A DNA stretch of 64,000 nucleotides from Aegotheles albertisi (Eukaryota): NCBI GenBank assembly GCA_039906565.1, contig JBDMAX010000536.1:225716-289715 (forward strand), given 5' to 3'. Below, in pieces: positions 4,851 through 64,000 of this stretch. Below the pieces are notes generated by a model. That model worked only from the letters and a program-made list of their open reading frames with translations. It was not told where the DNA came from and did no database searches. Position 1 is the first letter of the stretch, and each line of letters opens with the position of its first letter. A program made the translations under genes and the position numbers.

Positions 4851-5129
4851 TGGGGTCACAAAAAAATCGGGCAGCGTCCTGTTTGGGGCAGAAAGCGTGT
4901 TGGCTGTGCAGCTCTTGGGGAGGGCAGGAGGAGGCTGGCTTCCTGGGTCAGTGATGAGTGTTGGCATGTATTATCTGATGTGGAGGTGATGTCTATCCCC
5001 ACTTTAGCTCTAGAATTACCCTGAGACCCAGGGAACTCCAGTTTCCCCCGGCAGTGACCTTTGAGCTTTTCCAGCGTGTGGAATCAAGTCACTGCCACAA
5101 ATCCTGTCCCAGCGCCAGGAGAAGGGGGG
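4841..5129 (+). repeat. Internal direct repeat, copy 2, immediately 3' of a sense CR1 fragment.
   Basis: Same as copy 1. Mirrored copies sit in the right arm at about 22510..22798 and 24098..24386. Confidence 0.8.
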
Positions 5130-19644: not shown

Positions 19645-20139
19645 GTAGGGCCCCACATTTCAGGGGAAGGTGGCAAGGGGAAATCCTGCCTCTGCAGCCA
19701 GAACAGGTGGAAACCTGAAGGAAAATAAGTTATTCCTGTCAGTCAGATTCTTTTGGTGGAAACTGGAAACAAGATACTAAAAAGACCAACTTGTCTGTGA
19801 AAAAATGGTTCACCAGAAGAAAACCTTAAAATTCCTATTTCTTTCCAACTCTCGTATGTTGCAAAGGCCAACAGATGACAGTTTCCATGATAAGGAAATT
19901 GCTCTCGGGTACCCTCAGGTTATCAAACTGTATCCAAAACCCTTTTTGTGGAGTTAACAGCAGACAGAAGCATCTACTGTGGCACCCAAGCCCAACAGAG
20001 TGATGTACAATACAGACTATCTGCTGCCATACGCCCTTGCCAGTGGAAACAGAGCCTGACGGCACGCTCACCTCTGCTGGGTGCTCTAAAAAGACTGCAG
20101 GATCTCAAGTGGATGTTTTAGGATTGGTTTTCTCTGTAG

Positions 20140-26100: not shown

Positions 26101-27636
26101 CAGCGTCCGACCGGGGGAGCCGCGCGGAAAGGCGGCTGCGGCCTCCGGGCAGGGAACGGGGCCCCCACGAGGTCGCCTCGGGGCGATGCCGGAGCTCAGC
26201 TGAGAGCCGCCCCCCCCCGCAGAGCCCGGGGACCGACACCGCAGCTCCCCCCTGTGCGTGGCGGGGGGCGCGGGGCAGGAGAGCAGCGGCTGCGGAGCGC
26301 AGCCCAAGCCCCCCGGGAAGGGCGTTCGCGGTGCCGGAACCAGCCGGCCCCGACCCGGCCGCCGGGCCCTGGCCCAGGCCGAGCCGCGCAGGCCACGAGG
26401 GGGCCGGGGCCGCCCCCGCCGCCTCCCCGGGGCTCTCCCCGGGGCCCGGGCAGGCTCGGTCTCGCCGCCGGGGCCCCCGGCTCCCCCCCAGCTCCCCCCC
26501 AGGCCGCAGCCGGGCCCGACCCCGCTCCGCCGCCTCCCCCGCGCGCACCCCCCGGAGCGCCCGGCAGCGCGGGCCCAGGGGCGCCGCGCGGCAGGACCCC
26601 GCCATAGCTGCCCGCGGCGTTCGCCTGACCCGCGCGCGCCGGCGGAGGCGGTGCCGCGGCCGGGCAGGAGCTGGCACCGCGGCGGCGCCCCGCGCCCCGC
26701 AAGGACCCCGCCCCGCCAGGACCCCGCCCCGCAGGCGCGGGCTCCTCAGCGGCCGCCGGGGCAGGAGCCGCTCCTGGAGCTCGGCCCCGGCTCCCCGCAC
26801 AGAAACCCCCGCGCCGGCCCGGGGAAAGCCTCGCCGGCTGCCGACGCGCCGAGCCGGGCGGGCGCCGCCCGTGCGTGTGCGGGAACGCCCCGTGGGGCCG
26901 CGTGAGGCGCGGTTCGCAGAGCTGGGCCCGAACGCAATGGAGGGGCGGCCTGAGCTTGGGCCCGGCCCGTGACACAGCCTGGGCAGTGCCGGCTGCCCTG
27001 GAGCGCTTGGAAACGAGGCCTCTCGGTGTGCCTGGGGGGGCTGTGGGGGCTCTCGGGGCGTTTGAAATCCCGCAGCCGTGTGTGCGGTACCCGATGGTGC
27101 TGCTCTCCCTGCAGGGTGCTCTGGGGAGCAGCTGCCAGTGGGGGCACAGAGGGGCTTGGGGGAGAAGGGACCCCTGGAGATGATCTGCCCCAAGCCCTGC
27201 ACGAGCAGAGGCAGCTGCCCAGGACCACGTCCACTTGGGTGTTGGCATCTCCAAAGATGGAGACTCCTCAACCTCTCTGGACAGCGTGTGCGGGGTTTGA
27301 GCTGCCCTTACAGGCAGACCAGGGTGGGTATTTGTGTGCAGAGGGGATTTGGGGGATTTTATGTGTGCTCGTTGCCTGTGGGCACTGCTGAGGGGTGCCT
27401 GGCTCCCTCCCCTTCCATACCATGGGACGTTCATGCATGTAGATTAGGATCCCCCTGAGCCTTCTCCCCAGGCTAAGCAGCCCCAGCTCTCTCTGCAAGC
27501 TCCAGACCCTCCATGATCCTCCATCCCTGGCCTCTCTCCAGCACTGGGGATCCCAGCACTGGACAGAGCAACTCCAGCTGTGGCCTCACCAGCGCGGAGT
27601 GACTTCCCCAAGGAGTCCAGGGGAGGTGTGTTCTGC
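20140..27636. repeat. Right arm of the large inverted repeat. It probably continues past 27636, pairing with sequence left of the window.
   Basis: Mirror of 1..7500. About 1% substitutions are visible as amino-acid changes between mirrored ORFs. One indel is visible: ORF 4398..4967 is intact on the left but split on the right as 22672..23094 and 22814..23242. Confidence 0.9.
25850..27040. promoter_or_regulatory. CpG island at the outer end of the right arm. Mirror copy of 600..1790.
   Basis: Same composition as the left-arm island. ORFs 25803..26972(+) and 25856..27271(-) mirror 664..1833(-) and 365..1780(+). Confidence 0.6.
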
Positions 27637-41588: not shown

Positions 41589-41620
41589 TCATCATACATA
41601 CGCTAACATATGTATGATGA
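41589..41620. repeat. Perfect 12-bp inverted repeat (hairpin) at the 5' junction of the CR1 insertion.
   Basis: tcatcatacata-cgctaaca-tatgtatgatga. Confidence 0.6.
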
Positions 41621-41621
41621 A

Positions 41622-42650
41622 GAAGTCAGAGAGTTGTAGTCAATGGGACAGAATCTCGTTGGAGGTCTGTGACCAGTGGAGTCCCTCAGGGGTCGGTACT
41701 GGGACCGGTGTTGTTCAATATCTTCATCAACGACCTGGATGAGGGTACAGAATGTATCCTCAGCAAGTTTGCTGATGACACTAAACTGGGAGGAGTGGCT
41801 GACACACCAGAGGGTTGTGCTGCCATTCAAAGAGACCTTGATAGGCTGGAGAGTTGGGCGGGGAGAAACTTAATGAAATTCAACAAGGGCAAGTGCAGAG
41901 CTTTGCATCTGGGGAAGAACAACACCATGCACCAGTACAGGCTGGGGGCTGACCTGCTGGAGAGCAGTGTAGGAGAAAGGGACCTGGGGGTCCTGGTGGA
42001 CAGGAGAATGACCATGGGCCAGCAATGTGCCCTTGTGGCCAAGAAGGCCAATGGCATCCTGGGGTGCATTAGAAAGGGGGTGGTCAGTAGGTCAAGAGAG
42101 GTTCTCCTCCCCCTCTATTCTGCCTTGGTGAGGCCACATCTGGAGTATTGTGTCCAGTTCTGGGCCCCACAGTTCAAGAAGGACAGGGAACTGCTTGAGA
42201 GAGTCCAGTGCAGAGCCACAGAGATGATTCAGGCAGTGGAACATCTCCCTTATGAGGAGAGGCTGAGGGAGCTGGGTCTCTTTAGCTTGGAGAAAAGGAG
42301 ACTGAGGGGGGACCTCATCCATGTTTACAAATATGTAAAGGGTGAGGGTCAGGACGATGGAGCCAAGCTTTTGTCAGTGCTGACCAATGATAGGACAAGG
42401 GGCAATGGATGCAAACTGGAGCACAGGAGGTTCCATGTGAATCTCAGGAAGAACTTCTTTCCTGTGAGAGTGCCAGAGCACTGGAACAGCTGCCCAGAGA
42501 GGTTGTGGAGTCTCCTTGGCTGGAGACATTCAAACCCCGCCTGGATGCTTTCCTGTGTGATGGACTCTAGATGACCCTGCTCTGGCAGGGGGGTTGGACT
42601 AGATGATCTTTCGAGGTCCCTTCCAACCCCTAGGATTCTGTTGTGCTGCA
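41622..42650 (+). mobile_element. CR1 LINE, 5'-truncated (ORF2 C-terminal and 3' UTR).
   Basis: ORF 41669..42574(+), 301 aa, with [30 protein letters not shown] and [29 protein letters not shown]. The 3' end ...cccttccaacccctaggattctg is at about 42640. Confidence 0.9.
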
Positions 42651-46334: not shown

Positions 46335-46961
46335 CATTCCACATTCCCCTGTTACTTTGGGGTTGTGGTTATGGGAGCTGGGAACGTTTGAACATGTTTG
46401 TGATTTTTTGGTTTGATCTGTGCAGTGACACATCTGCTGAGCTTTGGGTGCACACAGGTCAGCAGGCTGGTGCCTCTGGTGTCAGGAGAATGGAGAAAGT
46501 AGCAATAGGAGTATTTTTATCATGGAAAGGTTTGTCTTTACCAGAACTCGGAAGGAGGAGGAGGATGGCGGAGCACGTGTCTTGTTCTGATTTTGTTCAG
46601 CAGCCCATTCGCTCCCAGGACAGCGAATGGCTCATCCTTACGGTGAGCTGTGGTTTTATTTATGATGCCCAGAAAACTTGATGTGTTGAAGTTGCATGTA
46701 AAAGTGTACTTTTCATGAAAAAAGTTCTGCTGATCCTTGTGTTTGGTTACACATGCAGGCAAATCTAGTCTGCCATGTCTTTCCTCTACTCGTGCAGTTG
46801 TTTTTGGGTGGAAGTGGGGAAGAAGAGTGGTAGACCAGGGCTGATCATGATTTTTCCTCTCTAGTGTCCTCCCCTCATTCTTTGCTCTTTCACTGCTTTC
46901 AGCTCTTCTTTTCAAGGCTCCTCTTCTTCTCTGGGAGGATGTTGTCCCACGGGGAGGTCTC

Positions 46962-48760
46962 TCAAGTCCTGGGGGTGCTGGCTGGCCAGGGGCACTTGGC
47001 CTGTTTGCTGCTCACCTTGCCCGCTCTGGGTGCCACCTGGCAGCAGACGATGCCCGGTGGCAGTGGCAAGCGGGGCAGAACCACCCGGGGCTGCCTCCGC
47101 AGCGCCTCCTCCACCAGCTGGGCCTTGTGGGGTGGGTGATGCTGGGGGGTGTTGCTGAGGAGGGCGGTCAAGCCGGAGCTGTTGGGGTCATTGGGGATGG
47201 TGTCCTTGATGTCCACCAGCAGTGTCACCGCCACTTGCTCCTTGGTGCAGCCACCCTCTGCCCTGTACTCCAAGAGATCAGGGAACTTGTTGAGGCAGGT
47301 GCTCAAGTAGGGGGCACCGGGGACATCAGGGACAGTGCCATTGCTGGCCCCCAACCCCACAGCTGCCACTTGCTCCTGGGGCCAGCTGTCCCCTGCCACA
47401 TACTCTGAGAGGTCAGCAAGCTTGTTGAGGAGGGTGCTCAAGTAGGGGCTGTTGGGAACCTCAGGGCCATCAGGGACAGTGTCCTTGCCATCCATGGTGT
47501 CAAGCCAGGCGAGCGTGTCAGCAATGTCCACCGGGAATGACAGCTCGTCCTGAAACTGCAGGTTGTCCCCTGCCAGCTCAGGAAAGGCCTCGGCGAAGGC
47601 ATCCGGCCCCAGCTCAGGCAGGTCCAGGGTCTTCTCCAGGGTCTCCGTGATGTTCACCAGTGCTGGACGAGCAATCAAAACCAGCCCAACCCTGGAGTGA
47701 TGCAAGCTCTCCTGGGCACGGGAGGCCTGCGTGTGGGCTCTGCCACCCCCAAAACTCCCCTCTGGGCTTTGCCATGGTTCTGCCATCCAGAGGAGCCAGG
47801 GTGGGCTGGTGGGAGCTGGCAGGGGGGACCCTCTCCTCGATGGCCACTTTGTCCTTGCTGGAGGCCTCGGATGGCTTCTGGGCACTGCCAGACAGCGTGT
47901 GGAGCACAGGGGGGCCCTGCACCCAGTGCTGAGCTGCAGGCCAGGGGATTGGGGGGGGCAGGGTGGGCAGGGACATGCGGCAGGCAGGAGCCTGTGGGGT
48001 ACAGGGGCTCCCCCTGCACCACAGCCCCCAGGCCCAGCCCCATCGGCTGGTGGGGCACCAGCGTCCCCGTCACCACCTGCTGTCCCCAGCCATAGGTAGG
48101 GGGACAGGGAACAGGCCCAGGGGAGAGCTGCACCCCACAGGGGAGCTGAACCCCATAGGGGAGCTGCCCCAGCTGCCCCAGGCCTCCCAGGGGCCCTGGC
48201 ACCCCATGCCAGACGCTGACCTGCGCCAGCTGGTGGGTGATGGGGTGGACCTGGGCAGGCTCAGAGGACACCGGCAGCCCTGGCTCAGAGGGCAGCACAA
48301 CAGTGACCGGTGGTGGCGTGGCCGGGGCAGTGAAGCTCGCACCCAGCGCCTCTGATGCCATCTGCAACTGGAGAGGGAACCTCTCTGTCGGGGGAAGTGA
48401 AGAGGGGTGACGGGGTGAGAGCTCGGCAGTCAGAGCCAGCTGGGGGGTTCCCTGGTTCCCTGGAGGGCCGGAGCACGAGGAGGAGCAGGAGCCTGCGCTG
48501 CATCTGACACAGGGCTTGGCCAGCGGGGGCTCTGTGGGGGGCAAACAGCCTCTGTCCTCATGGCCATCGTTCGCCAGCACCTGCCTCAGCAGCTGTGCCA
48601 GGGGTTTATTTTTCACATCACGACAACCGCCAGGTGACACGGGCGTTTTGTCACAATGCACGTGGTGACCGAGGCACAGGGGGGGGGTGCTGTGCTTGAG
48701 CATTCCGAGAAGTGCCCGAGAATTCCGGCAGCCCGGAACTGGCAATTCCCAGAGGCCTCA
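46962..48760 (-). CDS. Unidentified long Pro/Gly/Gln-rich ORF with three tandem ~45-aa acidic repeats. It spans two overlapping frames (47675..48760 and 46962..47885). Candidate single-exon gene, internal exons, or a pseudogene.
   Basis: Frame b gives ...ALVNITETLEKTLDLPELGPDAFAEAFPELAGDNLQFQDELSFPVDIADTLAWLDTMDGKDTVPDGPEVPNSPYLSTLLNKLADLSEYVAGDSWPQEQVAAVGLGASNGTVPDVPGAPYLSTCLNKFPDLLEYRAEGGCTKEQVAVTLLVDIKD... This is not a GC-composition artefact; it has patterned hydrophobic and acidic repeats. Possible acceptor ...tcgtccag|CACTGG near 47690 and donor GGCAAG|gtgagc after 47016. No family match recognised. Confidence 0.35.
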
Positions 48761-49252: not shown

Positions 49253-49346
49253 CTACCGCTTCTTCACTTTTTTCACAGGAGGTTCCATTTGAGGAGAAGA
49301 GGAAGAGTATCTAGAGTGAGATGAAGCACTACAGGGAGACTTGGAC
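49253..49346 (-). CDS. RBBP6-like gene, terminal coding exon (Ser-rich tail plus stop).
   Basis: ttttttcaag|G TCC AAG TCT CCC... translates to (R)SKSPCSASSHSRYSSSSPQMEPPVKKVKKR*. Human RBBP6 has ...SFSRSKSPYSGSSYSRSSYTYSK... and then continues for about 1000 aa. Here the ORF stops. Confidence 0.7.
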
Positions 49347-50747
49347 CTTGAAAAAAACACACCACAAAAAAAGAAAAGTTAATTCAAAAGTCACTCTCCC
49401 CATTTTTTTCCTCCCAAGTTTGTTTGTGGTTTTTTTCCCTCTCTACATGTTCATGTCAAAGCTTCTTCCAGCTGCTGACACAATGCTACTGTGAACTGAA
49501 GAACTTGGTAACATGTAAGAGTTTCTGCTCACAGACAAAACAGCTGCTGCTCTGTGAGGGTAAAAACACACGGGAAGGGGAAGGCAATTTCCACTCGCTT
49601 CTATCACAGGAGCTACCAGAGCTGTTGGGTGATTGAAGGTGGGGCATGCTGGCCTCTACTGGTACATGAACACGCACATTTTTCACTGCTCTGCAAGAGC
49701 AAATCATTTTTGTTGCACTAATATGCAAAAAGAGCAAGTCTCAATGGCTGCAGGGCGCTATCAAACATCAAGATGACACAATTAAGCCTGAAGACAGTGA
49801 AGCTCTATTTTGAACTGCCAGCTCAGTCTATTTAACTTTGGTACTTAGCTGGCAATTTGGCAATTTGTACAGGATGCAAGATCCTTGTCCTGCAACCTTA
49901 CAGACAGGACTATGTAACCCACACGTCCAGCCAGATGCCCCAGCAGCATTTTGCACATACCTCTAGCTCCAGCCTAGGAGAGCGACCGTGTTTCAAGAAG
50001 AGTCGTAACTTAACACTGCTAAACTCAGCCTCTAGTGCTTTGACTCAGCGCCATTACTCTAGGGCAGACACTGTCAGCATTGCTAGTAGACAGCTACTCA
50101 GACTCCTGCCCAAGGGGTTTTTGGGGATAGAAAACATCAGCTGCCCTGGTTTTGCTTCACAAGGTTTTATTTTATTATTTTTTTAAAAACCACGTCACGT
50201 TCTCCCACATATGTTCATTAGCAACATTCCTCCTCTCAAAGTCCTTCACCAATTTAAGATTGCCTTACAAACAAGTCTGATCTTTAAATTCCCCAGAACA
50301 ATTTAACAATGTCAACAAAATACCAGCAAAAGCCACCAGTTTGCAGTCCAGGTTAAAATCTCTCTGTGCAGCCACATGAAGAGGAAATGAAGACCATTTC
50401 TCTCCCATATCTCCTCCAAAGTGCTCTGAGGTTATGGCTACAATCAGAATAGGGAGACGCAGAACATCCAGCAACTGCACCTATTCAGTTTCTGGTCTCC
50501 TCACGGCTGTCAGGAGGCGAAGGCTGTCATTGCAGAGAAGCTTTAATAAAAGAGACACCTGCTCCTGAACAACTGCTGCAAATTCTATCAGCAAACTGTA
50601 ATCCCTGCGGGAACCTACATATGAAACTCCTATCGCTGCTGACTCCTGGAATCACCCAATCCATCTAACCACAGAGAGATGGAATGGAACTCCTCCCGAT
50701 TCTCCTTGACCATCTGCTTCTCCATTACGGACATGTGAAGCCCTTAC

Positions 50748-50868
50748 CTGGAAAACAAACGCCTACGCTCCTTTGGAATCTTCTTATAGTCCACCAATTC
50801 CTTAGCAAAATCATCTGTAAACTCATCCAGTCTGGGCTTTTTCTTTTCCCTGTTAAATTGAGTTCGAC
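50748..50868 (-). CDS. RBBP6-like exon.
   Basis: (G)RTQFNREKKKPRLDEFTDDFAKELVDYKKIPKERRRLFS(R). Human has KKKSKLDEFTNDFAKELMEYKKIQKERRRSFSR. Acceptor aataaag|, donor CCAG|gtaaggg. 121 bp, phase 1-in/2-out, consistent with the next exon. Confidence 0.8.
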
Positions 50869-51154
50869 CTTTATTACAAAGAGACACCAAAAAACAAAAC
50901 ATGGCCAATATGAGACCATGTATACTGCATGCACACACAAAAGGTGAACATCCCGTCCCAGCAAAACCAGCTCAGAGTTCCTGCATGCTTTAGGGAACGT
51001 TTTAGAATGACATTGGTCTCATTTCAGTTTTGCAGCTTTATCACCGCAATGAGAAAGTTCATTGGAACAATGAACATCATTTCTGCTGATGTCAGATGCA
51101 CTTTAGTGTTGCTGCAGTCCGACACGTGACTGAAACACAAAAATGAAAACCAAC

Positions 51155-51245
51155 GCAACTTCTGTGAGCCAAACACTTGCTCCTCTGTAAGTCTCCATCG
51201 TTCTCTGTAAAACTCCTCCCCAGGTAACGGGAGGCAAACAGCATC
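51155..51245 (-). CDS. RBBP6-like exon with the EEFYRE motif. Boundaries are uncertain.
   Basis: [23 protein letters not shown](VFGSQKL). Human has PPLSREEFYREQRRLKEEE. Acceptor caagccag|GATGCT. The only phase-compatible donor is a weak C|gttggt at 51155. An upstream exon is still missing, because the preceding exon at 52239..52299 ends with a 1-nt carry that does not join here. Confidence 0.45.
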
Positions 51246-51254
51246 CTGGCTTGT

Positions 51255-51350
51255 GTCAGCAACAGTGTGGCCAGCAGGACCAGGGCAGTGACCGTGCCCC
51301 TGCACTCAACACTGGTGAGGCCACACCTCGAGTCCTGTGCTCAAAGGAGA
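51255..51350 (+). mobile_element. Short CR1 ORF2 fragment inside an RBBP6-like intron.
   Basis: cactggtgaggccacacctcgagtcctgtgctcaa corresponds to ALVRPHLE-like CR1 ORF2 sequence. Confidence 0.5.
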
Positions 51351-52238
51351 CTCCCACCCCCCATGCGCCAAGTGCCCACCACCCCTCAGCCCCTCCCTGA
51401 GACATTTCATACTTCACACTTCTGATTTCCAAAGCACCGCACGACATTAACTAAACTGCTCTCAAACTTCTGTAACTCCTCCCACGTGCGCTTCTTATTG
51501 TGCTGCCTCACGATGTCGTCCTTGGCCTGTTCCGTGTTCCTGGACTGTTATTTCCTTGCTTACTGAATTTGAGATTTCAGATAACCTATAGGCTGCATCC
51601 TGGGTTCTGTTTGATTTATCTTGAAGGTTTGATAAACACAATGCACCCTTACAATCTCTCTATGACAAACATGGACCAAAAGGAAGGACTAACTTGACAC
51701 TGCAATAAATAGATAAAAGTGAGACTCCCCTCTCTCCAGCTGTGAGAAGGCACCTTGGCTATTGGAGATGACTAAATCGGAGAAATTCAAAATTGTCATA
51801 AAATAACAGCGCTGGCTTTTCCAAGAATTTGCTCAATCAGGATCAACCAAGTTGTTAAAAAAAAGGAGGCTGGAGGCTGATTTCTAGGAAGATCAATTTC
51901 TTCAGCCCTGTTCAGCCAGTCATCAAAAGAGCAGCTTTCCATCTGATCCTATAATTATATTTCATTTTTATATGTAATTATGATTCCCTCAAAAAGGGTT
52001 CACTTTTCAAAGTCCTCTTTTCACTCATGTATTGGAGTTTTATTTTAATCTTACTGCAAGCACAGATCCTCTTTGTTAAAGCCAATTTAGTTTAAGCCTT
52101 TTACAAATTAATTACTTAATTAATTCTCCACAACTCTCTGTGCATACTTTTATCATTGAAAATCAGCTGTGTGCTTGTTAACAGCCTCATTTAGCAGTTC
52201 ACAAGTAGCAACACACTGAGTTTCTGTAGAACACTTAC

Positions 52239-52299
52239 AGTTCCCAGCCTGCTCTGCCGCCTGCTGAGCGAATCGCGCTGGCTCCTGTTGGATGACCTT
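52239..52299 (-). CDS. RBBP6-like exon in the linker region.
   Basis: ccccactccag|AAG GTC ATC CAA CAG GAG CCA GCG CGA TTC GCT CAG CAG GCG GCA GAG CAG GCT GGG AAC T|gtaagtg translates to KVIQQEPARFAQQAAEQAGN. Phase-compatible with the upstream exon 52598..52723. Confidence 0.55.
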
Positions 52300-52597
52300 C
52301 TGGAGTGGGGAGAGGAAAAAAAAAATCCCATCCAGTTTATTTGAAGAGAATTTTTTAAAAGAAATAATAAAGTCACAGTTCCTTACCAGTTATGGGTACT
52401 GATTGTCCCTGGGGGCCCAGAAGCCTTGGTAATGCTGCTTGCCTTAGTACAGGAACCTGAGAGCCCTTGGGAATAAATGCAAACAGCTGGAAAATGAGCT
52501 CTACTGAAATACAAGAATCACTGCAAATGTTGATCTAAAACTGACACAAACTGCTGACTGACAGAGAGGAAGGTTTAGGAAGTTCAGCGGCACTCAC

Positions 52598-52723
52598 CAG
52601 AGCAGCGGGAGGTGTAACAGTCATGAGTGGTAGTGGTGGAGGTGGTGGTGGTGGCTGCTGCTGCTGGATCTGCTGAGCGAGCCTTTTTGTGCAGGCAGTT
52701 CCATTTGTGAAGTTGTTCACAGC
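52598..52723 (-). CDS. RBBP6-like exon: end of the RING-flanking region and the poly-Pro tract.
   Basis: AVNNFTNGTACTKRLAQQIQQQQPPPPPPPLPLMTVTPPAAL. Human has QAVNNFKNETGYTKRLRKQLPPPPPPIPPP. Acceptor ctgcctccag|, donor CTG|gtgagtg. 126 bp. Confidence 0.85.
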
Positions 52724-53172
52724 CTGGAGGCAGAAAAACATTTACAAAAAGGTGCTACGACACTCAATAGATACACGAACAGAAGGCTCCACAGAGTGAA
52801 ATGACTTGTGTATTCCTGTAAATGCCATCAATCCCCAAATAAATCAACATCCAGGTACATGAACACATCACATTAAAGAGTGATATTAATGACTGGTAAC
52901 TCAGGGAGCTGGATTTAAAGCACTTCAGTGTTAACACCCCATCGGAAAGTGAGGCAATCCTGTTCCACAAAAGTGTGACCTGAATTGGCCACATTGTCTC
53001 TAAAGAGTTGTAAGCTTCTCTAACAACAGAGAAATCTGTTGTATTTTAAAATCTGGTCTTACTCAATTCTGCCTTGCTTAAGGAGATATCAATTAATATT
53101 TCATTCCCTTTCAGCTTTTTACAAAAACGTTTGTTTTCTTACAAACACTTTATGCAAAAGTCATCATGTTAC

Positions 53173-53276
53173 CTGGCGTAGGGACTTGTTGGCAACTAAA
53201 GCATCTGGAGAAACATCTCTCTGATGGCACGTGGGGCATGCATGTTCCTCAGATTCCAGTAATGCTGTTCTAATGC
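53173..53276 (-). CDS. RBBP6-like exon, second half of the RING.
   Basis: (C)IRTALLESEEHACPTCHQRDVSPDALVANKSLRQ. Human has CIRTALLESDEHTCPTCHQNDVSPDALIANKFLRQ. Acceptor ttctccacag|, donor CAG|gtaaca. 104 bp. Confidence 0.9.
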
Positions 53277-54032
53277 CTGTGGAGAATTAGAATCATCAAA
53301 ACGGTTTTTAGCCAAACGATGGAAATCCTGGGCGTTCCAGTCAATTCTAAACACACGTATATGATTAATGGGTGAAGATGGTCTTGCATGGAGAGCGTGA
53401 AGCTATAAGTGTTCAATAGCATACACAATTTCTAGTATGCAGCAAACAACTACACAGTTTCGATGTTTCACTCTTGTAACATTTGAAGATGTAGAGTAGG
53501 CTGTGTCTTGATGGTTCAACTTGTCTTCTTGCCACTATCTAGTACTGTGAGAAGTCACCAACCCCAAGGCTAGTGAATAAAACACATCTCAGAAAACCAT
53601 TAATAGGTTTGAGCTCTGAAGGTTTTATCCAACCCCCTCAGGGAGGAGAATGTGGATCAAAGGCCAAACTACCCATTTGTTGCAGGGCACAGTAAATCCC
53701 CAGGCCTGGCTATATAATTCTGTGTGAGAGAAAGGGTTGTGGGCAAACGGAATTAATTTGATATCTGATGTTGTCATCACCTGCACAATTACGCACTCTT
53801 CTCATACTCCTCCTTCTGCAGGTAAAGAGGATTTAACTAGATCCACAAAAAGGGGAAAAAAGATTTGTGCCTTTTTTTTTTCTTCTCTACAAGAAGAGTC
53901 CTGTCCCATTCCAGGCAGACTCCAGTATTAAATGGAACTGATAACAAAGCCATTTCGTTATCTCCTATTTCTGCTCTCAGCAGATCAGACGATGGGATGT
54001 TTGGAATGAACTAACACGAAAGGAACACTCAC

Positions 54033-54202
54033 ATTCATCACAGTAACTGTTTCCACAGCAGGGAATAATGGCTGCATCAGTCATTACGTCGTTACAAATG
54101 AGACATAACAACTCATCTGGAATAGGATCATCTGAGGAGGAGGACGGCGGCTCCTTTGGTAAAAAGGGAGGGTTCTCCTTCTTCCCTCTAGCGTAAGCTT
54201 CC
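54033..54202 (-). CDS. RBBP6-like exon, first half of the RING/U-box.
   Basis: EAYARGKKENPPFLPKEPPSSSSDDPIPDELLCLICNDVMTDAAIIPCCGNSYCDE(C). Human has AIGKKEKPPFLPEEPSSSSEEDDPIPDELLCLICKDIMTDAVVIPCCGNSYCDEC. Acceptor cctcctccag|, donor T|gtgagtg. 170 bp. Confidence 0.9.
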
Positions 54203-54249
54203 CTGGAGGAGGGGAGGGAAGGAAAAAGAAAAAAGGTGAAGATGGAGTA

Positions 54250-54940
54250 GAAGAGTGTAGGAGAAAGGGACCTGGGGGTCCTGGTGGACAGGAGGATGAC
54301 CATGAGCCAGCAGTGTGCCCTTGTGGCCAAGAAGGCCAATGGCATCCTGGGGTGCATTAGAAAGGGGGTGGTCAGTAGGTCAAGAGAGGTTCTCCTCCCC
54401 CTCTATTCTGCCTTGGTGAGGCCACACCTGGAGTATTGTGTCCAGTTCTGGGCCCCACAGTTCAAGAAGGACAGGGAACTGCTTGAGAGAGTCCAGCACA
54501 GAGCCACAAAGATGATGAAGGGAGTGGAACATCCCCCTTATGAGGAAAGGCTGAGGGAGCTGGGGCTCTTTAGCTTGGAGAAAAGGAGACTGGGGGGTGA
54601 CCTCATCCATGTTTACAAATATGTAAAGGGTGAGTGTCAGGATGATGGAGCCAAGCTTTTGTCAGTAATGGCCAATGATAGGACAAGGGGCAATGGTTGT
54701 AAACTGGAGCACAGGAGGTTCCATGTGAATCTCAGGAGAAACTTTTTCACTGTGAGAGTGCCAGAGCACTGGAACAGCTGCCCAGAGAGGTTGTGGAGTC
54801 TCCCTGGCTGGAGACATTCAAACCCTGCCTGGATGCGTTCCTGTGTGATGGACTCGAGGTGACCCTGCTCTGGCAGGGGGGTTGGACTGGGTGAGCTTTC
54901 GAGGTCCCTTCCAACCCCTAGGATTCTGTGATGGGTAAAA
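54250..54940 (+). mobile_element. CR1 LINE 3' fragment inside an RBBP6-like intron.
   Basis: ORF 54284..54862(+) gives [86 protein letters not shown]. The 3' end ...ggttggactgggtgagctttcgaggtcccttccaacccctaggattctgtga is present. Confidence 0.9.
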
Positions 54941-55798
54941 GAAAACTTTCCCAAGTTTTGGATTTTATTGAAGGCAGACAACAGATGGAATTCTTCTCAC
55001 TTCATGTTAGCCTTCTAAAGCAGAGACATTTAGTTTCAACGACTTTTCTGTAACCACAACACCAGAAGAGGGACAGGGGAACAATTTTCCATCTGCAGAA
55101 CTCTCCCATTCATGGGAACAACTGAGAAATTAGGTACGATGAGAAAAATCATTTTTTTAACACCTGTGAATCAGGTGAAATGAATCACACCTCTCCTTTG
55201 CCAGTGGGTACCTGCCCATTGCAGGGCTCAGGATAGAGTTAGCCTCCAAGTAATTACATTTTATACATGGAAGAAGTCCACGTTACCGCCTCTACAGGAG
55301 ATCTGTGACAGAGAAACAGAAGTGCTACCAAGTGCATTTTACAACAGCCACTCTTGTCAGCACACAGTAGGGCTTTCTTAGTTTATGGCAATAGGAAAAC
55401 TTCAATCTGCTTCACACGTGGGATTTGATACAAGTCAGAAGGGAAGGAAATCTCAGTCCAACAGCTATTGGTTAAATTTTGCAAGAAGCCCTTGAAACAT
55501 CAAACGGAAGCAAAATGAGCTTCATTCATGAGTTGTTTCACAGAGAACAACTCCACTGCAAGGACTACTGAGATGCTATGCAGAAATACAGACCCTTCGC
55601 ATACCACAAGTTTAACCAATTGCCAGGGGCCTGAGCAGTAGGACCACCCTATGTTAACATTAGAAAGTCTTCCAGGTGTTAAGGTTAAGATACAAGGGCA
55701 ATGCTTCCTTCCCCGTCATTACAGATGCTGCCACTCTGACATTTACGTGTGGTTTCTCTCGTTCACCTTCTGGTCAGCCCAGTTCATTCCATACTTAC

Positions 55799-55938
55799 GC
55801 ATTAATAGCTGGTATTACATATTTTCCAGTGTTTGTCAGCATTGCACCCTTTTTATTGGGATCTTTCACCTCCACCAGGAAACTTCTTGGAATTCCTGTG
55901 CTCTTTTTAACTCTGGGAACAGGCTCAAAATGTTTGTC
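55799..55938 (-). CDS. RBBP6-like exon between the zinc knuckle and the RING.
   Basis: DKHFEPVPRVKKSTGIPRSFLVEVKDPNKKGAMLTNTGKYVIPAINA. Human has GDKNFESGPRIKKSTGIPRSFMMEVKDPNMKGAMLTNTGKYAIPTIDA, about 80% identity. Acceptor cttaacag|, donor GC|gtaagtat. 140 bp. Confidence 0.9.
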
Positions 55939-56424
55939 CTGTTAAGAAATGCAGACACCTCTAAGACCCACACTTAGAATGAGATTTCAATGATTATTTT
56001 AAGCAGTAAAAGTCTTTAATCCTTCTCTTACCTGGCTTAAGGGCTGCTCAACTGAAATACTTATTTTCCTTAGTGAACACTGCCAGGATGTTCCAAAGTC
56101 TCGAGCAGTGTTTTGGACTCAGTCAACATTCTTTGGCTTAACTTCAGGTTCCTTAAGGGTAAAATATCCCTCAGCTCACCACCCACTCAGAGAATGGACA
56201 CAAACTTGCTCCTCCTCCACAGTGCAATTCAGAGTGAGAGCTTAATTCAGTGCTCTGAATCAGACACTGGGGAAACTTAGATTCACCATCTATAGGTGAA
56301 GGTTGAGTCATTAAAACACGCAAATACTCAACACATGGGGTCAACATCTTGGTTTTATACAAAATACCAAAAGCTGTGAACTTTCATTAAAAAGAGTTAC
56401 CCCACAGGTCCCCCACAATCTTAC

Positions 56425-56521
56425 CTTGTTTGTTGGGCAGTTCTTTCTATAGTGGCCAGGTTTCCCACAACGAAAGCAAGTGTATGAAGGTGGAGGTGGA
56501 CCCAAGGGGACCTTCATGTAA
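56425..56521 (-). CDS. RBBP6-like exon, CCHC zinc knuckle.
   Basis: (?)YMKVPLGPPPPSYTCFRCGKPGHYRKNCPTNK. Human has YMKKPLGPPPPSYTCFRCGKPGHYIKNCPTN. Acceptor cttctag|, donor AAG|gtaagatt. 97 bp. Confidence 0.9.
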
Positions 56522-56644
56522 CTAGAAGTGTTTTGGGGAGAAAAGAGAAGGGTGTGCATGTGTCTCTCTTGTTAAAACAAACATCTCTACAATTTTTCTA
56601 TCACCTTCAAAGAACAGATTTGACATTCTCAACACTTATGTGAC

Positions 56645-56728
56645 TGGATCGTAGTAGCGGCAAGACTGTACCATCATAGCTTTTATTTTATCTTCTTCGG
56701 AGGCATTGGCTGCAGCCAGGTTGGCAGT
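56645..56728 (-). CDS. RBBP6-like exon upstream of the zinc knuckle. The 3' boundary is unresolved.
   Basis: ccattaaacag|ACT GCC AAC CTG... translates to TANLAAANASEEDKIKAMMVQSCRYYDPVT*. Human has TANLAEANASEEDKIKAMMSQSGHEYDPINY. An in-frame TAA at 56636..56638 follows directly, and there is no phase-compatible GT donor to join the zinc-knuckle exon. The N-terminal DWNN-domain exons were not found. They may lie beyond 56728 or outside the window. Confidence 0.5.
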
Positions 56729-59700
56729 CTGTTTAATGGGGAGTGGTTGGACACACACATTAAAAACACATTCCAGCCCACACAGACACCACCACTTTCC
56801 CAACCCTGTACAGAGCAGCACAATGTGAGCAGAGGTTGCATGAAAGCAGCTGCTGATATAAAACACAGTTGTCCTGAAGTGTTCTGGGGAGTCCTCATGC
56901 CACTACGTGGTGTCTATGTGCCCAGTAGCCTACTTGAAAAGAGCATCCTTGGGCACTCAAAACCTTAGGCTCCATTTGTACCTTACATAAAGACAAGCCA
57001 ATTTTCTTCCAAGTGGACGGAAGCTCTCTGTAGAAAAAATGACACCCTCCAGCATTTTTAAACTGATTTTTAAGCTCCAGACTATTTGAAGGAGAAGATA
57101 CCCACTGTACATTTCATTGAGAAAGATGTATGCAAGTATAACTGTTTACATTTTGCAGCATCAAAAGGACACACAGCTTAAGAGTCGGGGCAGTTGTTTG
57201 TGCTTGCTGAAATGCAGCTTCAGACACAGAAGGAATTAAAAGGAATCAAGCTTTTCATAACCCCTCAGCAAGACAAAAGGTTCTTTCCAGTACAAATGTG
57301 GCCATCATGTGCTGCAGGCAGTCCAAACTGCATGTTCCCCCTCGACTGACTTCTTCAGATGAAGTGATTTAACTACAGTAAGCAAAATTAGCATTTTTTC
57401 TCCCAGTTGAATGTGTTGTTTGAACATACACATACAAAGCTTCAAAGTATTGGAGCCAGCTGATTTTTTTAAAGTAGTATTTGTTCAAATGTTTTCATTA
57501 CACACTAGTCCAGAGCCTAAGGGAATCACTGTAAATTCTTTGGCCCTTCAAGCACTTATCATTCAGATCATTCACTCATGGTTTGGTTTTTATATGCAGT
57601 CATTCCCAAAAGCAACCAGCTACTTTCAACATTTATTAAATGGTTGTTCCATATACACAGGTTTTTCTCAACAGTAACATAACCCAGATCCACATCTAGG
57701 AAACCATTGCCATCAACATTTACAGAAAACTTTACAGATACTTGACTCATTTGTTTGAACCCAAACAGTTTACAACACACATCCAAACCCCACAAGACAT
57801 TGCTAGGAATACACCAGAATCCAAAGAGGGCATTTCATATAATAATGAACCAGAAAACTTTTCACAACAGATTGCCTCCATGCTAAGCCAGTCTGCACTG
57901 AAGAGGTCAGAGTAAGTAACAGTTATGTTCCTGCTTTTCTCTGAAATACTGCAGTTTTCTCAAAAGCTTTAATGTGTACACCACTTGGACAGTTTTTCAC
58001 ATTTTTGAGTAAAACTTCACAGGAGTTTGCAGAGCCAAGGCTGCGTTTAGGGACAGCACTAATGCAGACCAATTGCTCTAGGTGGCTGCCTTCCCAACCA
58101 ATTGTTTTTTTTCCCCCAAATGTACACAGTTTAATTTTGGCGGTGGGAGGGGGAAGAAGTTACCAGTGGGAAGAAATTTCCCTTTCTTGGAAATGAACTC
58201 CAGCCTTTATTTTCAGAAGAAAGAACCAGCTCCTCTGCACTAGGCCCTGCCTTCTCTAATCTTTGGAACTTTAAAAACTAGTAATAGGATGGGCACGCAC
58301 GGCGACTTCTCACACAGTGCCATCACCAGTGCTTCCCCAGACAAAGTTACACACCGGTGAGCAAAAATGCAAGCAGTTCCACAGCAACACGTGGCATCAC
58401 AACAGCTTCAGAAGGTCACGTCTGCTAATACGCCACACACATCAGTATGTTCCTATAGACCATGAGGTACATTTACACAATTCACACAGTCTGCGTGCAA
58501 ACGACTTAGATTGTGTGGCCCACTGTATGTATACTACAATTTATGAACCTGTGCAGCATCCAAAGAATGGCTCTATAACTCTAATGACTGGAAATTCAAA
58601 AAGAGCCAGGCAATTGTCCATGTTACAGAAATGCTTCTATTTTGGCTGTTGCAAGCTCCCCTCCAATGTCCACACCTTACAGCCAATTAAATTCTTCAGT
58701 AAACATTGTGTTGGCTTCCAACACAAAATAAACAAAATGTGTGAGAAACGGTAAACAGCTTCTGGAGTGCTTCTGCTTTGTGTCTTGAAGATGAGTAATC
58801 CTGCAATGCCACACTGAGGCTGATCAGGTAGTCCCCTTCTCTCTTCCCAAACTGGGAGCTACCCTTTACACCAACATAGACACACATTTTACAGTTAAAA
58901 TAAATACTTCAGATTATTAAAAATGAAACTAAAATTTTGTTCATAAGTTATCCAGCTATAGGTGACAGTATAAGATTTAAAAATAGAAAGCAAATATATA
59001 TTTTTTTAAAACTATTTGACAAGAATATATATCTATACCTTAATAAGTTGGGCCAGAGAAAGAGGTGCAGAAGAGTCACCAATCTGTTCACAAAAAATGA
59101 AACACATATTCAAGTTCTACAATCAAAACACGGCAATAGTGTACTCAACTGTAGTCTAGACGCCTGCTTTATATCCTCTGTGTGTCACTGAAAGAGGCAT
59201 TTCCAACCTAATTTGTATTTGTTCAAAACAAAGTCCAAACCTACGACAGTTTAAGGGTGCTTATGTGGTTAATGAGAAGAAACTAAAATAACCAAACACA
59301 CTTGAGATCAACTGATTGTGCCCTTGTTGAATGCTCACTACTGCTTAAAAGTCAAAGGGGTAAGGAAGCTGTTAATTTTCAAATTAAAAGTATTAACTCT
59401 GCCCGTCCTGTCAGTAAGTTTAAAAATGCAGAGCTCAGGTACCCCACAAAACCCAAATAAAAACACCAATCCAAAACAACACTGTAAAAGTAACCCACCG
59501 CTTCCTCTAGAGAAAAATACACTGCTCAAATTATTGAAATAAAGGTGTTCACTGTGACAGAGTAGCCTGTACAACCAGAGAAAACTCATTTCTTGTATTT
59601 TACTGGACCACAGATCACGCTATCCAAGTAGTTTGGGAAGTGTGAGAATTTAATAGTATTCTTGCTCTCAAAGCAAACCCAATTTTTCATGGTGATCTAA

Positions 59701-62700
59701 ACGTGGATTTGGAGCACAATGTTGTAGCTTTTGTCTCCATTGCAATCACACTCCTCCCTCCCAGCTATCTACTGGCACAGCTTGCAGGAATGAAGCCCTC
59801 AGGCCACCAGTTTGTAATGGACTGCAGTGGTTCATGAGAACTCCTACTGAAGTGCAGTTTTCTCACAAGTAAAAAGGGTACCTCTTATCTTGTTCCTGGC
59901 CCAGTACACTGAATTCTGTTATGCCACAAGCCGCAGTTAAGCTGATGTTAGTAAAGTATTACCAGAAAGACACTTGAATCGCTGCTTATTGTGTCACAAG
60001 TTGCTCAAAAATGCAGAATAAAATTTCACAATGTAAACTGAACAGCTCTTCTCAAGAGGTCACTCAGAAGGGAGTTGAAAACCCTTCCTTGAAAAAAGCT
60101 CGTCCCTTATTACCTGCGGTAGTGGGAGAATTCAAGGGAGCCATTTCAGCAGACTCTGGGAAAAAAAATACCTACATGCAGAAGAGGATTCCTCACTCCA
60201 GTTATTCATTCATTCTCTATCCAGGAAAGTACATAGAATCATTACTGTATTACTAACTAAAAAGTTCTTGAAAACGTGCCTTTGGAGAGGAACACCCATG
60301 TCTGGAAAAAGTGACCTTCTTTCCATTGCAAGTCTTACCAGAAGTTTCAACTTTCCTTCTTTTCAGGACACTTTGTACCTAGTTCTGTTAAAAAGGAAGC
60401 CCGATCAAGTATTTTGAAGCTTTACGCTCTTTTTGACATGTGGAAAAACAGGCCAGTGTTCTCTCATGGCAGGCACAATCAGGATCATTCTATGGTTTTT
60501 CAGAAGCAAACAAGAAATGAGGAAAGCTCTCCATTGGAGTTCAGCATTAAACAATCTCCTATTGCCAGGAACTGAAACAAAACAGTTCAGCAACTCCTAA
60601 GGAGTTCTTGCATGTTTTTTAGGAAACAGTTATTACGTGGCCTGCAGGCAACGGTCTGATTTCATACAGAAACCTAAAGAGAAACTGACATAAAGCAAGG
60701 GGAAAGGGGACAGAAAACAGGAGGAAAATGGCTGATCTCACTGCTAGAGCGCTACATTGAAATTACAGTGGCTTCCTAAAATCCAATAGCTTGGCTAAAC
60801 TAAAAATTCAGCCAGCAAGGATCACAGTGGTGCTTGATGGTGCTAAAACAATGGGCATGACTCTCTGCATTTCTGCAGCTTCCAAGGACAAACACCAACT
60901 AGAGATCCTTGCAGTTACCGAAACAGTAACACTGAACCAAAAAGGATCCACTGTCTTGCTTTGGCTGTAGTAACAGCAGGACCGCAGCATGAACTGGGGA
61001 GTGTGGAATGACAGTGCACAGAAGACCAAGAAAATAGTGAAGAAATAGTCCATGTACAAGCTCTTGTGTGTCCTTTTGAAAAAAAAAACCTTAACTGCTT
61101 TTACTTTTGCTGCGTTACTGATCAACAATAATGGGAAAGTTTTCCAGTGATTTACTCCTACCACAGTAAGATCCAGGTTCTGCTTTGAAATACTCAGAGA
61201 TCTGTGTATTAAAAACCAAAACAAAACCAAACCCCCACACTTTAGACCAGGAGCTGAGTTAGCTTTAAGAATCCAGCTCGTTGTGTCTCCAACACGAGGA
61301 GCACTTGAGGCTGCAGTGCTTTTACAGTGAGAGAGAGAGGGCTTGTCCAGAGAGATGCCAGGCTTCCCCCCTACCTACAGTCACCCACAACCCAAATTGG
61401 GTACAGGCAGAGAAAACAAGACTGAACTGGTTTTGCTTTGCCTTTCATTTACTTCATTAGTTCTAATTAACACTAAGACTTCCCTCCCATGCCAGGATTT
61501 TCCCTTTTTTTTCTTTTTTGAGACATCTGTGTTAGCTTATGGTAAGCTGCTACTCAGAAATGTACTACAGATACACCAGGGAATACACGAGGCTAAAAGA
61601 ATGTTAACTTCAATTATGAACATGTGACTTGGGTTTATACACATGCTAGTAAATCAAGAGAAAAATAACTGTTTTCAAGAAATCAAACCCCATCAGAATT
61701 AGATCAAACACTGTGAACATGGTTTATGTAAATGCATTACATTAACTACCAGGGTCACTGGGTCTGCTTACGGTTTTTACTATGCAGAATCAAATACACT
61801 GTATTTACAACATATACTATGTTCTACTGGAAAATATATTAAGTCAATGGTTGGAGAAACAATACAGGGTTACATTGTTTAGATTGAAGTGCAGAGTGTA
61901 GAAAAAAAGTGAGATATGTTTTTACATACTGCTTTTGACGTTCCACTCACTGGCTCAGCTGGACTTCTAGAAGAAGAAACAAAGGTGATCAGAACTGAAA
62001 ATAAAACACCTGCACCCAGCCTAAAGCAGTGAAAACAGAGTATAAAACCTGAACATCAAAACATGATGTTCTAATAGTCCAGTGAATGTGGAAATCAATT
62101 TGTACCCATAAACTGTTCCCTCGGGATATTCAGTGCAACTAAGAAACCCCCCAAAACCCCATTTCCACTTTGTCACTCACTACTCTGAGACAGAACACCA
62201 CAGTGCCAGAGGAAGCCCTCAGATATTTGCTCTCTGCCACGGAAGTACCAACAGTACGAAGTCTGTACTACAGGTTTGTGTTCTTAAATAACCAACCACC
62301 AAACACTTTGAAGGGCAAGTTTCCTGAAGTGAAAAAAGCCAGGCATCTGACAAAGAAATAACAAGGACAGTCTCTGGAACTGTGTTTCTCTGTGGCAGCC
62401 CAAGCACTGTGTTGGGAGATCACAGTGCCACAGAGTGCCAGAATACACAGTGTGTTCCGTATGCTATACTGACTAAGCACAGCAGTAGAAATGTCACCTG
62501 AAAGCACCTCCTAGGATTTTGTCCAATCTAGGAGCCCTGTGACAAGAAAAAAAGGGTCTCAATGGCCAGAATTTGCTTTAAGATAATCTTGAAAATGCTA
62601 CAATATTTTAGGAAATATTTATTACAGTTGAAAGCTTGCTGAGATTCCACACACTTCTCACACTATCTGCATGCTACTCATCACGCGTCAGACAGGCAAC

Positions 62701-64000
62701 CAGTGACACAGTTCAACAATTCACACATCACCCAAAGTGTCCCACGAGCAGAGGCAACTCAAGGGCTGCTGTGAAATTCATGGACAAATGGAAAGGCTCC
62801 ACCAGGAAGAACACCACCAGGCTCACGATGGCAGCCACGCACCTCCTGAAGGTGAGGAAGTAACCTCCAGGTTACCACACAGTGGTTTCTTCATACATCT
62901 ACCTTGAAGAACATACTACAAGGTGAGTAACACACGTTTGAAGGCCTCTCCACCATTACAGCATCCGTTCATCATTCCCATCAGTAACCACTCTACCAGT
63001 TGTTGCTGCAGTGTCTCCAGCTGAAGGAACAGAAAGCTGATCTGCCCGGTTCATTTCCAACACTGGGACAGCACGGCCATTCCCTCCTGATCCCCACAGA
63101 CAGGCATTTGTTTGAGCTCTGAGGCCAGCAGCATCTTGCCTCTCATTTTAGGGCAGCGTTACAATCCCAGAAGAGGGTGCCACCCAACCACACGCGGAGG
63201 GTGCACTGACCTGGCAGCATGAAGCACACCTATTTATATTAAGCCCCAAAACAAGGCTGTGTTTATAAGCACAATGCTGTGGCACCCAGAATTGCCAGGT
63301 AGTGCCTGCAGGCACTGCCATTACTACTGCAGTCATATGCCCAAAGTTCACAAGCAGAGCCACATCAATTCAGGTTATTTGCTTGCAAATGCCCCATGGG
63401 TGCCAGGATGCTGCTGTACCGTTTGCTTGAGACGCTGTCACTCACCGGCCTGCTTGATTTACTGAGCACCAACATGAGAAAGACACAGCCCAACCACAAG
63501 CTAACGCTGTCTACTCACTGTGGCGGGGAGGCAGACCTGTAAGAAGGCTGGAAAATGTGACCATTCAAGCAGTGCTAATGGAGCTGACAGAGAACTGGAC
63601 TGTATGAATACAGAAATGACAGCAATAATCCCGAAGTAAGGATTGCATTGGAACAGCTCCAAGTTTAACCAATGCACCCAATTCTCTGCCCTCCGTAAAT
63701 CTCGGGGATACAGAATTAACACCCAGAGCACAGATACCTGCCGAGGGTAAAAACCCACTCAGGAAGAGAAATGGTAACACTGGGCAACTAAGTGCTAAAC
63801 TGCTTCCTGGGTTTAAAGTTTTCAAAGGATTAACTCTTCCCTCATTGCATGCACACAAAGGCAACACGCTTTAGGATATTGTACTTTTCCTCTTGCCTGA
63901 AATGGACATTGCCTTCAGGAAACTGATGGGAATCACTTATGAACGGAAGCTCTTGTCGGCATGGTTCCCCAGCTGGCAGCTGTTGGTCTTTCCTCTATAG

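Follow-up and report, generated by a model that had tools for sequence, protein, structure and literature searches.

An intron-containing RBBP6-like duplicate upstream of ACADM in Aegotheles albertisi, a probably disabled copy from an avian multi-copy family

Introduction

The machinery that cleaves the 3′ ends of mRNA depends on RBBP6, an essential cofactor which is normally encoded by a single-copy gene. We analyzed a stretch of 64,000 nucleotides from Aegotheles albertisi (assembly GCA_039906565.1, contig JBDMAX010000536.1, positions 225,716 to 289,715 of the forward strand), which is referred to as the window. It carries an RBBP6-like gene copy on its minus strand. This copy lies upstream of ACADM, and a copy of an uncharacterised gene family, here called X, is located between the two. 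We consider it probable that the RBBP6-like copy is an intron-containing duplicate of RBBP6 which belongs to a family found across Neoaves, came to lie beside X and ACADM, and was disabled recently.

Gene Structure of the RBBP6-Like Copy

The gene model was built on a five-locus alignment with the RBBP6-like copies from stork, pelican, loon and goshawk, combined with tblastn searches and inspection of splice sites. A human RBBP6 sequence that served solely as a tblastn probe gave per-exon E-values down to 1e-26. The minus strand encodes an RBBP6-type zinc knuckle, a RING/U-box, a poly-Pro stretch, the EEFYRE/LDEFTDDFAKEL segment and a Ser-rich tail stub of about 30 residues. Pfam zf-CCHC_2 is matched with 33.9 bits (cut-off 27, E=2.7e-8), and Pfam U-box is matched with 26.1 bits (cut-off 21.4). 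The RBBP6 RING structure (PDB 3ZTG) aligns with an E-value of 9e-47, the alignment showing all Cys/His ligands, and the RBBP6 zinc knuckle (PDB 2YSA) with an E-value of 1e-24. The tblastn, Pfam and PDB matches far exceed what chance would give and thus bear out the RBBP6 architecture that had been proposed in an earlier note on this DNA.

Twelve exons of the copy are in the window, all on the minus strand and named E0 to Ek. The two most upstream exons lie outside the range 49253-56728 to which the gene had previously been confined, while the others are within it. Exon E0 (61930..61966, RSPAEPVSGTSKA) encodes the linker after the DWNN domain. It was found by tblastn with the N-termini of the camel, loon and pelican proteins, and it has a conserved AG acceptor and a GTATGT donor in the alignment with stork, pelican and loon. 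Exon Ea (59039..59083, IGDSSAPLSLAQLIK) was found by tblastn and by alignment. Exon Eb (56640..56728, TANLAAANASEEDKIKAMMVQSCRYYDPV) is followed by an intron that begins with ATAAGT (see below). The CCHC zinc knuckle is encoded by exon Ec (56425..56521, CFRCGKPGHYRKNC), with every ligand present, and is followed by exon Ed (55799..55938, DKHFEPVPRVKKSTGIPRSFLVEVKDPNKKGAMLTNTGKYVIPAINA). The RING/U-box is divided between exon Ee (54033..54202; first half, matching Pfam U-box and PDB 3ZTG) and exon Ef (53173..53276; second half), where the Cys/His ligands are all kept. Exon Eg (52545..52723) starts with AVNNF and encodes the poly-Pro stretch; its short form stops at a GTGAGT donor at 52598. Exon Ex (52387..52465, GSQVPVLRQAALPRLLGPQGQSVPIT) was detected by tblastn with pelican, potoo and pigeon proteins and is backed by the alignment and its splice sites. 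Exon Eh (52239..52296) encodes GHPTGASAIRSAGGRAGWEL in the ancestral frame. It is followed by exon Ej (50748..50849, EKKKPRLDEFTDDFAKELVDYKKIPKERRRLFS) and by the last exon, Ek (49253..49346), which encodes SKSPCSASSHSRYSSSSPQMEPPVKKVKKR up to the stop codon. Exon Ek has an internal deletion in the RS region, and its stop codon arose by a TTG>TAG change. At about 49250, homology with every other copy ceases; this is a 3′ breakpoint of the copy's own.

Every exon listed in the earlier note was recovered from the minus strand, bordered by AG and GT (56728-56636, 56521-56425, 55938-55799, 54202-54033, 53276-53173, 52723-52598, 52299-52239, 51245-51175, 50849-50748 and 49346-49253). The model required revision, as exon Ex (52465-52387) had been missed, the exon at 52299-52239 had been given a non-ancestral frame and acceptor, and the EEFYRE piece had been counted as an exon even though it is an orphan. 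When ancestral splicing is applied and the orphan piece is skipped, the 12 exons form an uninterrupted open reading frame (ORF) of 379 residues that ends at the TAG. Every border on this path is canonical except the donor of exon Eb.

No DWNN exons were detected in 56800-64000, either among six-frame fragments or by relaxed tblastn. Since DWNN exon 2 of stork, pelican and loon maps about 430-600 bp past the equivalent of window position 64000, the DWNN exons of this copy are expected just beyond 64000, outside the window. At the other end of the gene, the window has no tail-like sequence downstream of the stop codon, and no AATAAA occurs within about 640 nt of it. The intron between exons Ed and Ee carries a young CR1 (54254..54932, plus strand) with a reverse-transcriptase ORF (54284-54862). 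This element shares 95-96% identity with three further CR1 copies of the window and is private to this gene copy, with all other bird loci skipping 54234-54932.

Lesions

Two junction problems had been noticed before, an in-frame TAA behind exon Eb and a phase clash between 52239 and 51245. Both are real, but they had not been recognised as concrete lesions.

The first is a GT>AT change in the donor of exon Eb. The window reads ...GTC AC|ATAAGT at this site, while stork, pelican and loon have ...ATC AA|GTAAGT and goshawk has ...ACC AA|GTGTTG. The +1 G>A change is at 56639, and read-through immediately hits the TAA at 56638-56636. The acceptor at the end of this intron, in front of exon Ec, is a normal AG. 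The donor change is therefore a classical splice-blocking mutation.

The second is a deletion of about 1.1 kb relative to stork (15578-16669 of the stork locus is missing), with its junction at 51343-51347. It removed the complete Pro-rich exon along with the larger part of an old CR1 whose insertion lay within this ancestral exon, and it accounts for what had been described as a missing exon between 52239 and 51245. The remnant of the old CR1, including the deletion junction, is at 51250..51347 (minus strand). Next to it, the 3′ piece of the Pro-rich exon with the EEFYRE motif (51181..51245, minus strand) is left as an orphan, and GCAAGT now stands in place of its ancestral GTAAGT donor. Another donor that had been considered for this remnant, AAGT|GTTTGG, was dropped in favor of the ancestral position.

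In addition, the long form of exon Eg has an 11-nt deletion at 52546/52545 which removes the LEEK codons and shifts the frame. This deletion can be bypassed by the upstream GTGAGT donor at 52598. The sole hard lesion of the 379-residue path is the Eb donor. We infer that the lesions belong to the genome and did not arise during assembly.

Relationship to RBBP6 and to Avian RBBP6-Like Genes

Over 186 residues of the zinc knuckle-RING core, identity to RBBP6 from human and camel amounts to 80.6%, in line with an earlier estimate of about 80% to human RBBP6 for the most conserved exon. A petrel RBBP6 locus at a contig end of Pelecanoides urinatrix, which is a partial reference only, differs from human at just 3 of 137 residues in exons Ec to Ee (about 98% identity). 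Because of this difference in core identity, we predict that the locus is a paralog of RBBP6 and not its ortholog, and we infer that a separate true RBBP6 exists elsewhere in this genome. A protein search with the human core returned no full-length bird RBBP6 ortholog, all returned proteins being shorter than about 640 residues. It should be noted that the second RING exon of the petrel locus (corresponding to window 53276-53173) has two in-frame stops and several replacements. A contig chimerically assembled from short reads, or a paralog, could account for this.

We consider it highly improbable that the window copy is RBBP6 itself, the true ortholog having been moved and shortened in this lineage. 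Such an ortholog would be expected to have the exon-intron layout of RBBP6, which the copy has, and the intron identity to the petrel RBBP6 (0.82) is not below that to the RBBP6-like loci. However, the core identity speaks against orthology, as does the splice lesion. The tail regions which define full-length RBBP6 are lost. There is no long C-terminal tail, since the Pro-rich exon is deleted and the ORF ends 30 residues into the tail, so that the C-terminal truncation noticed previously is confirmed. Furthermore, the copy has a truncated tail and a CR1 within an exon in common with RBBP6-like copies from other orders (see below). A processed pseudogene (retrocopy) is ruled out, because the 12 exons are separated by introns that are homologous to those of the other copies. 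The retained introns indicate a duplication at the DNA level.

In the protein collection, 261 relatives were found, and the best of these are almost all annotated as 'E3 ubiquitin-protein ligase RBBP6-like'. The phmmer comparison to such bird proteins gives an E-value of 7e-136. RBBP6-like proteins occur in pelicans, storks, loons, penguins, cranes, gulls and waders, raptors, owls, parrots and pigeons, and also in potoos, hummingbirds, hoatzin, turaco and suboscines, among others. NCBI annotation of the family covers dozens of genomes from Neoaves, with examples from Pelecanus crispus, Ciconia boyciana, Gavia stellata, Accipiter gentilis and Balearica regulorum. Genomes often have several copies: pelican has at least eight proteins on four contigs and goshawk has five, and many are flagged as LOW QUALITY. 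Proteins from Galloanserae, palaeognaths and oscines were absent among the 174 proteins examined, which is a weak negative result. The closest match to the window copy has a core protein identity of at most about 85%. Bird RBBP6-like copies are 72-88% identical to human RBBP6.

Four RBBP6-like loci were used for comparison, from goshawk (L001), stork (L002), pelican (L003) and loon (L004). The region 49310-64000 is colinear with all four, in exons and introns, at 77-82% nucleotide identity. As the colinear alignment includes the introns, we assign the locus to an old, Neoaves-wide, multi-copy RBBP6-like family, of which it is an intron-containing member and not a private duplication. The copy had previously been viewed as a diverged, lineage-specific paralog. 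It is diverged and a paralog, but it is not lineage-specific, given that the family is annotated in many orders.

An old CR1 insertion is common to some of the loci. An antisense CR1 splits the ancestral exon (...TTHAPP|LSREEFYREQ...) in stork and loon, while goshawk retains the exon in one piece. In the window, the sequence immediately upstream of the EEFYRE piece is the CR1 flank found in stork and loon.

Tails that stop within a few residues of the motif ...EPPVKK[VAS]K... are found in three pelican copies and in turaco, frogmouth and loon. The motif corresponds approximately to human residue 1057 and is reached through copy-specific internal deletions of the tail exon. The TTG>TAG stop of the window copy coincides exactly in position with the stop codon of pelican L003. 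The truncated tail (...EPPVKKVK..) is a trait of the family that is not private to the window copy.

Intron identities were compared for six loci. The window has values of 0.80-0.82 to all others, including the petrel RBBP6, and the others have values of 0.83-0.86 to each other. Since these identities are star-like, they suggest that the family diverged from RBBP6, and also branched within itself, around the time of the Neoaves radiation. Neighbor-joining trees of proteins and of introns are also star-like and provide no finer resolution. Sister-group calls were not retained. The potoo grouping in the protein tree and the goshawk grouping in the intron tree (bootstrap 0.77) are weak and in conflict with the CR1 marker.

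Soon after the 3′ end of the copy, the sequences from stork, pelican and loon jump to the equivalent of the window intron at 61.6-59.1 kb (L002 17269-19074, L003 24044-25044 and L004 29949-31953). The jump follows the tail exon in pelican and loon, and it follows exon Ej in stork. These three loci are therefore tandem arrays of partial units without DWNN exons, which explains gene models that lack DWNN. Beyond birds, it was observed that the rodents Arvicanthis niloticus, Scotinomys, Onychomys and Sigmodon each have multiple short 'RBBP6-like' proteins, pointing to independent RBBP6-like expansions in mammals.

Selection on the Core and Functional State

For the 170-codon zinc knuckle-RING core, pairwise dN/dS values between the window copy and four other copies are 0.22-0.45. 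The window's own branch has 12 synonymous and 19 non-synonymous changes (omega 0.44), and a six-sequence three-point estimate yields a dN of 0.055, a dS of 0.161 and an omega of 0.34. The share of non-synonymous changes is 61%, compared to about 78% expected under neutrality. The relatives have omega values of 0.15-0.58. The core has been under relaxed purifying selection for much of the history of the copy, as have the cores of its relatives. On this time scale, an inactivation would be recent.

It is possible, and we put this forward tentatively, that the copy is a functional, expressed short RBBP6 paralog of about 470 residues with DWNN, zinc knuckle and RING. The GT>AT change would then be a private allele or would have been introduced by assembly or base calling, and the protein could act as a tail-less activator or modulator of 3′-cleavage by CPSF. 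This would be consistent with the in-frame path of 379 residues, where 11 of the 12 exon borders are canonical, with the zinc ligands of knuckle and RING, all of which are kept, and with an own-branch omega of 0.34-0.44. A suspicious single-base nonsense codon in ACADM (see below) hints at base errors, and N-terminal fragments of RBBP6 are active in vitro (PMC8887130). However, relative to the GTAAGT copies of stork, pelican and loon, the donor region is changed at both -1 and +1. The Pro-rich exon has been lost, and an 11-nt frameshifting deletion is found at an ancestral exon end. The neighboring X copy is frameshifted, and the lack of AATAAA within about 640 nt of the stop also argues against an expressed gene. 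There is no close database protein for the locus, so that it may be annotated nowhere as a gene.

Returning to a recently disabled copy, which we consider the better explanation, several points weigh against it. The 379-residue ORF is intact with one non-canonical donor, which means that a single base divides 'dead' from 'intact'. The own-branch omega is well below 1, which speaks against long-standing neutrality. The window ends before the DWNN exons and the promoter. A true RBBP6 elsewhere in the genome is presumed to exist. Finally, the single-base nonsense change in conserved ACADM (TTA>TGA) makes base errors or heterozygous variants plausible in this assembly. Because this change and a 7.5-kb inverted duplicate in the window (see below) suggest possible base errors or misjoins, the pseudogene call is made with moderate confidence.

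Genomic Neighborhood and Assembly Quality

The host is avian, as is evident from CR1 retroposons with reverse-transcriptase ORFs and from a bird ACADM in the window. The coding exons of ACADM run from 38793 down to 29359 on the minus strand. The protein is 98% identical to the cluster represented by ACADM from Falco cherrug, and for one exon 44 of 44 residues are the same as in human, so that an earlier statement of 100% identity holds. Four SNORD45 small nucleolar RNA genes are located 3′ of ACADM (3355, 4946, 22609 and 24197). SNORD45 downstream of ACADM is expected for RABGGTB. Based on the identity to the falcon cluster and on the SNORD45 copies and RABGGTB downstream, this is the syntenic ACADM-RABGGTB locus. 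Proteins annotated as 'ACADM-like' were observed in stork, king penguin, manakin and kagu, and the one from penguin (L007) lies at the syntenic ACADM-RABGGTB locus.

The stop codon of the RBBP6-like copy is about 8.7 kb upstream of the ACADM promoter island, and both genes are on the same strand. The position upstream of ACADM, as reported earlier, is therefore correct. The X copy (46911..48745, minus strand; 1.8 kb) lies between the two genes and is split over three reading frames. X is an uncharacterised, multi-copy family that is restricted to birds. The representative library contains 70 homologs, the best having 637 and 634 residues, which are named only 'uncharacterized protein LOC...', 'hypothetical protein' or 'unnamed protein product'. 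Strix aluco has multiple copies, with many 'uncharacterized protein LOC1419292xx' genes on one chromosome. The family is characterized by a repeated ..P.LS.LLN.LPDLSEY.. motif and by the C-terminal ..RRQPRVLLTRLPLPPG..KRRKMV. No Pfam domains were detected in the GC-rich ORFs at 46.9-48.7 kb which represent X. X-like sequence likewise occurs no more than 10 kb from the RBBP6-like genes of stork and pelican.

Upstream of ACADM, homology to penguin ends at 41106, within the GC-rich promoter CpG island. Falcon and king penguin, when compared over the 10 kb upstream of ACADM, align with each other over about 4.5 kb that have no counterpart in the window. ACADM was not found within 10 kb of any of the four RBBP6-like loci compared (goshawk, stork, pelican and loon). 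The position beside ACADM, though not the gene family itself, looks lineage-specific. In the simplest reading, this lineage acquired an insertion of at least 23 kb, containing the RBBP6-like and X copies, upstream of ACADM, or it underwent a rearrangement there. Another possible cause of the adjacency is a deletion that pulled a more distant block closer.

We consider it unlikely that the adjacency to ACADM is an assembly artefact, with an RBBP6-like/X amplicon from a repeat-rich region being misjoined to the promoter CpG island of ACADM. In favor of a misjoin, the synteny with falcon and penguin ends abruptly at 41106 inside the GC-rich island, and the same window contains a 7.5-kb inverted duplication (99.6% identity) and an in-frame stop in ACADM. 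Elsewhere in birds, tandem arrays of these genes are found on small contigs or small chromosomes. On the other hand, the window has zero N gaps, and the region 41-47 kb is ordinary unique sequence plus CR1, without a visible join signature. The unique 3′ breakpoint at about 49250 is what a real transposed duplicate would show.

The in-frame stop of ACADM is a TGA at 36259-36257 (minus strand) in an otherwise highly conserved exon (...ACLITEE*AYGCTG...). The corresponding codon is TTA in penguin and TTG in falcon. The stop may be genuine, or it may reflect a base error or a heterozygous null allele. The inverted duplication (1-7507 versus 20130-27635) has 23 mismatches and 4 gaps, its arms being 12.6 kb apart. 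It spans the 5′ part of RABGGTB and results in the four SNORD45 copies.

CR1 copies at 9390-10412, 16949-17403, 41619-42641 and 54254-54932 are 95-96% identical to each other, and this high identity implies recent CR1 activity in the lineage. The copy at 41619-42641 has an open reverse-transcriptase ORF of 301 residues (41669-42574).

Interpretation

We propose the following scenario. A duplication of RBBP6 at the DNA level would have given rise to a family which kept DWNN, the CCHC zinc knuckle, the RING/U-box and a short tail stub. A block with one RBBP6-like copy and X would then have landed directly upstream of ACADM-RABGGTB, an arrangement that is absent in falcon and penguin. The GT>AT change of the donor, with a stop codon right behind it, would uncouple the linker exon (DWNN plus linker) from the zinc-knuckle exon. 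Loss of the Pro-rich exon and the frameshifts in neighboring X would represent decay of the block. At best, the window copy could make a stub consisting of DWNN and linker, but more likely it makes nothing useful.

For intact members of the family, function can be considered by analogy. In a mammalian reaction reconstituted in vitro, the DWNN and zinc-knuckle portion of RBBP6 (residues 1-253) is enough to activate pre-mRNA cleavage, and the RING is dispensable (PMC8887130). According to Schmidt et al., the DWNN domain by itself has no activity in cleavage, and mutations in the zinc knuckle inactivate RBBP6 (PMC8887130). Since DWNN and the zinc knuckle suffice for cleavage, an intact family member may be expected to behave like a minimal, N-terminal RBBP6 without the functions of the tail. 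Such a protein would dock on CPSF and help to activate the CPSF73 endonuclease, without the RS and the Rb- and p53-binding parts of the tail.

It is tempting to speculate, although we consider this doubtful as a whole, that Neoaves have an undescribed, tandemly amplified family of tail-less RBBP6 paralogs, often beside X, with a zinc knuckle-RING core that has been subject to purifying selection for tens of millions of years. Its members might be additional, perhaps tissue-specific, activators of or competitors in CPSF cleavage. The window copy would be a live member that moved to ACADM, and its donor lesion would be an assembly error.

The locus itself is one more, probably decaying, copy of a family which automated annotation has already labelled in many bird genomes. 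If bird-wide short paralogs are under selection, they would constitute a natural experiment on which parts of RBBP6 matter. Literature searches found no paper describing the avian RBBP6-like expansion. Population-genomic work on macaws and gulls names 'RBBP6' as a candidate gene and leaves paralogs unmentioned. 'RBBP6' matches in selection scans and annotations of birds may thus concern paralogs.

Comparison with Known Systems

The first comparison is to RBBP6 proper (human Q7Z6E9; yeast Mpe1, a CPSF/CPF cofactor). The window copy has the CCHC zinc knuckle and the RING/U-box in common with it, all ligands included, and the linker, poly-Pro and LDEFTxDFAKEL segments are recognisable. It differs in the tail, which has about 1000-1100 residues in RBBP6 and about 30 in the window copy, where the RS, Rb-binding and p53-binding regions are lacking. 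It also differs in its core identity of 80.6%, its neighbors and its splice lesion. RBBP6 proper has the DWNN domain, while the available sequence of the window copy ends before that region.

The other avian RBBP6-like genes are more similar. The window copy matches them in exon-intron layout, its introns can be aligned to theirs at 77-82%, its tail ends near EPPVKKVK and, in common with stork and loon, it has the CR1 in the Pro-rich exon. Its protein divergence is similarly accelerated, and constraint is similarly relaxed. Differences are its position beside ACADM, its own 3′ breakpoint at about 49250, an extra deletion in the RS stub, the 1.1-kb deletion of the Pro-rich exon, the young intronic CR1 and the GT>AT donor. 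Its protein is at most about 85% identical to any annotated member.

A further parallel is isoform 3 of human RBBP6, a short isoform that consists only of DWNN and was reportedly described by Di Giammartino et al. in 2014. If the intron after exon Eb is retained, translation would stop at 56638-56636 and the window copy would likewise encode a DWNN-plus-linker protein. The human isoform, however, results from regulated intronic polyadenylation of a single gene, while the window product would result from a donor mutation in a paralog.

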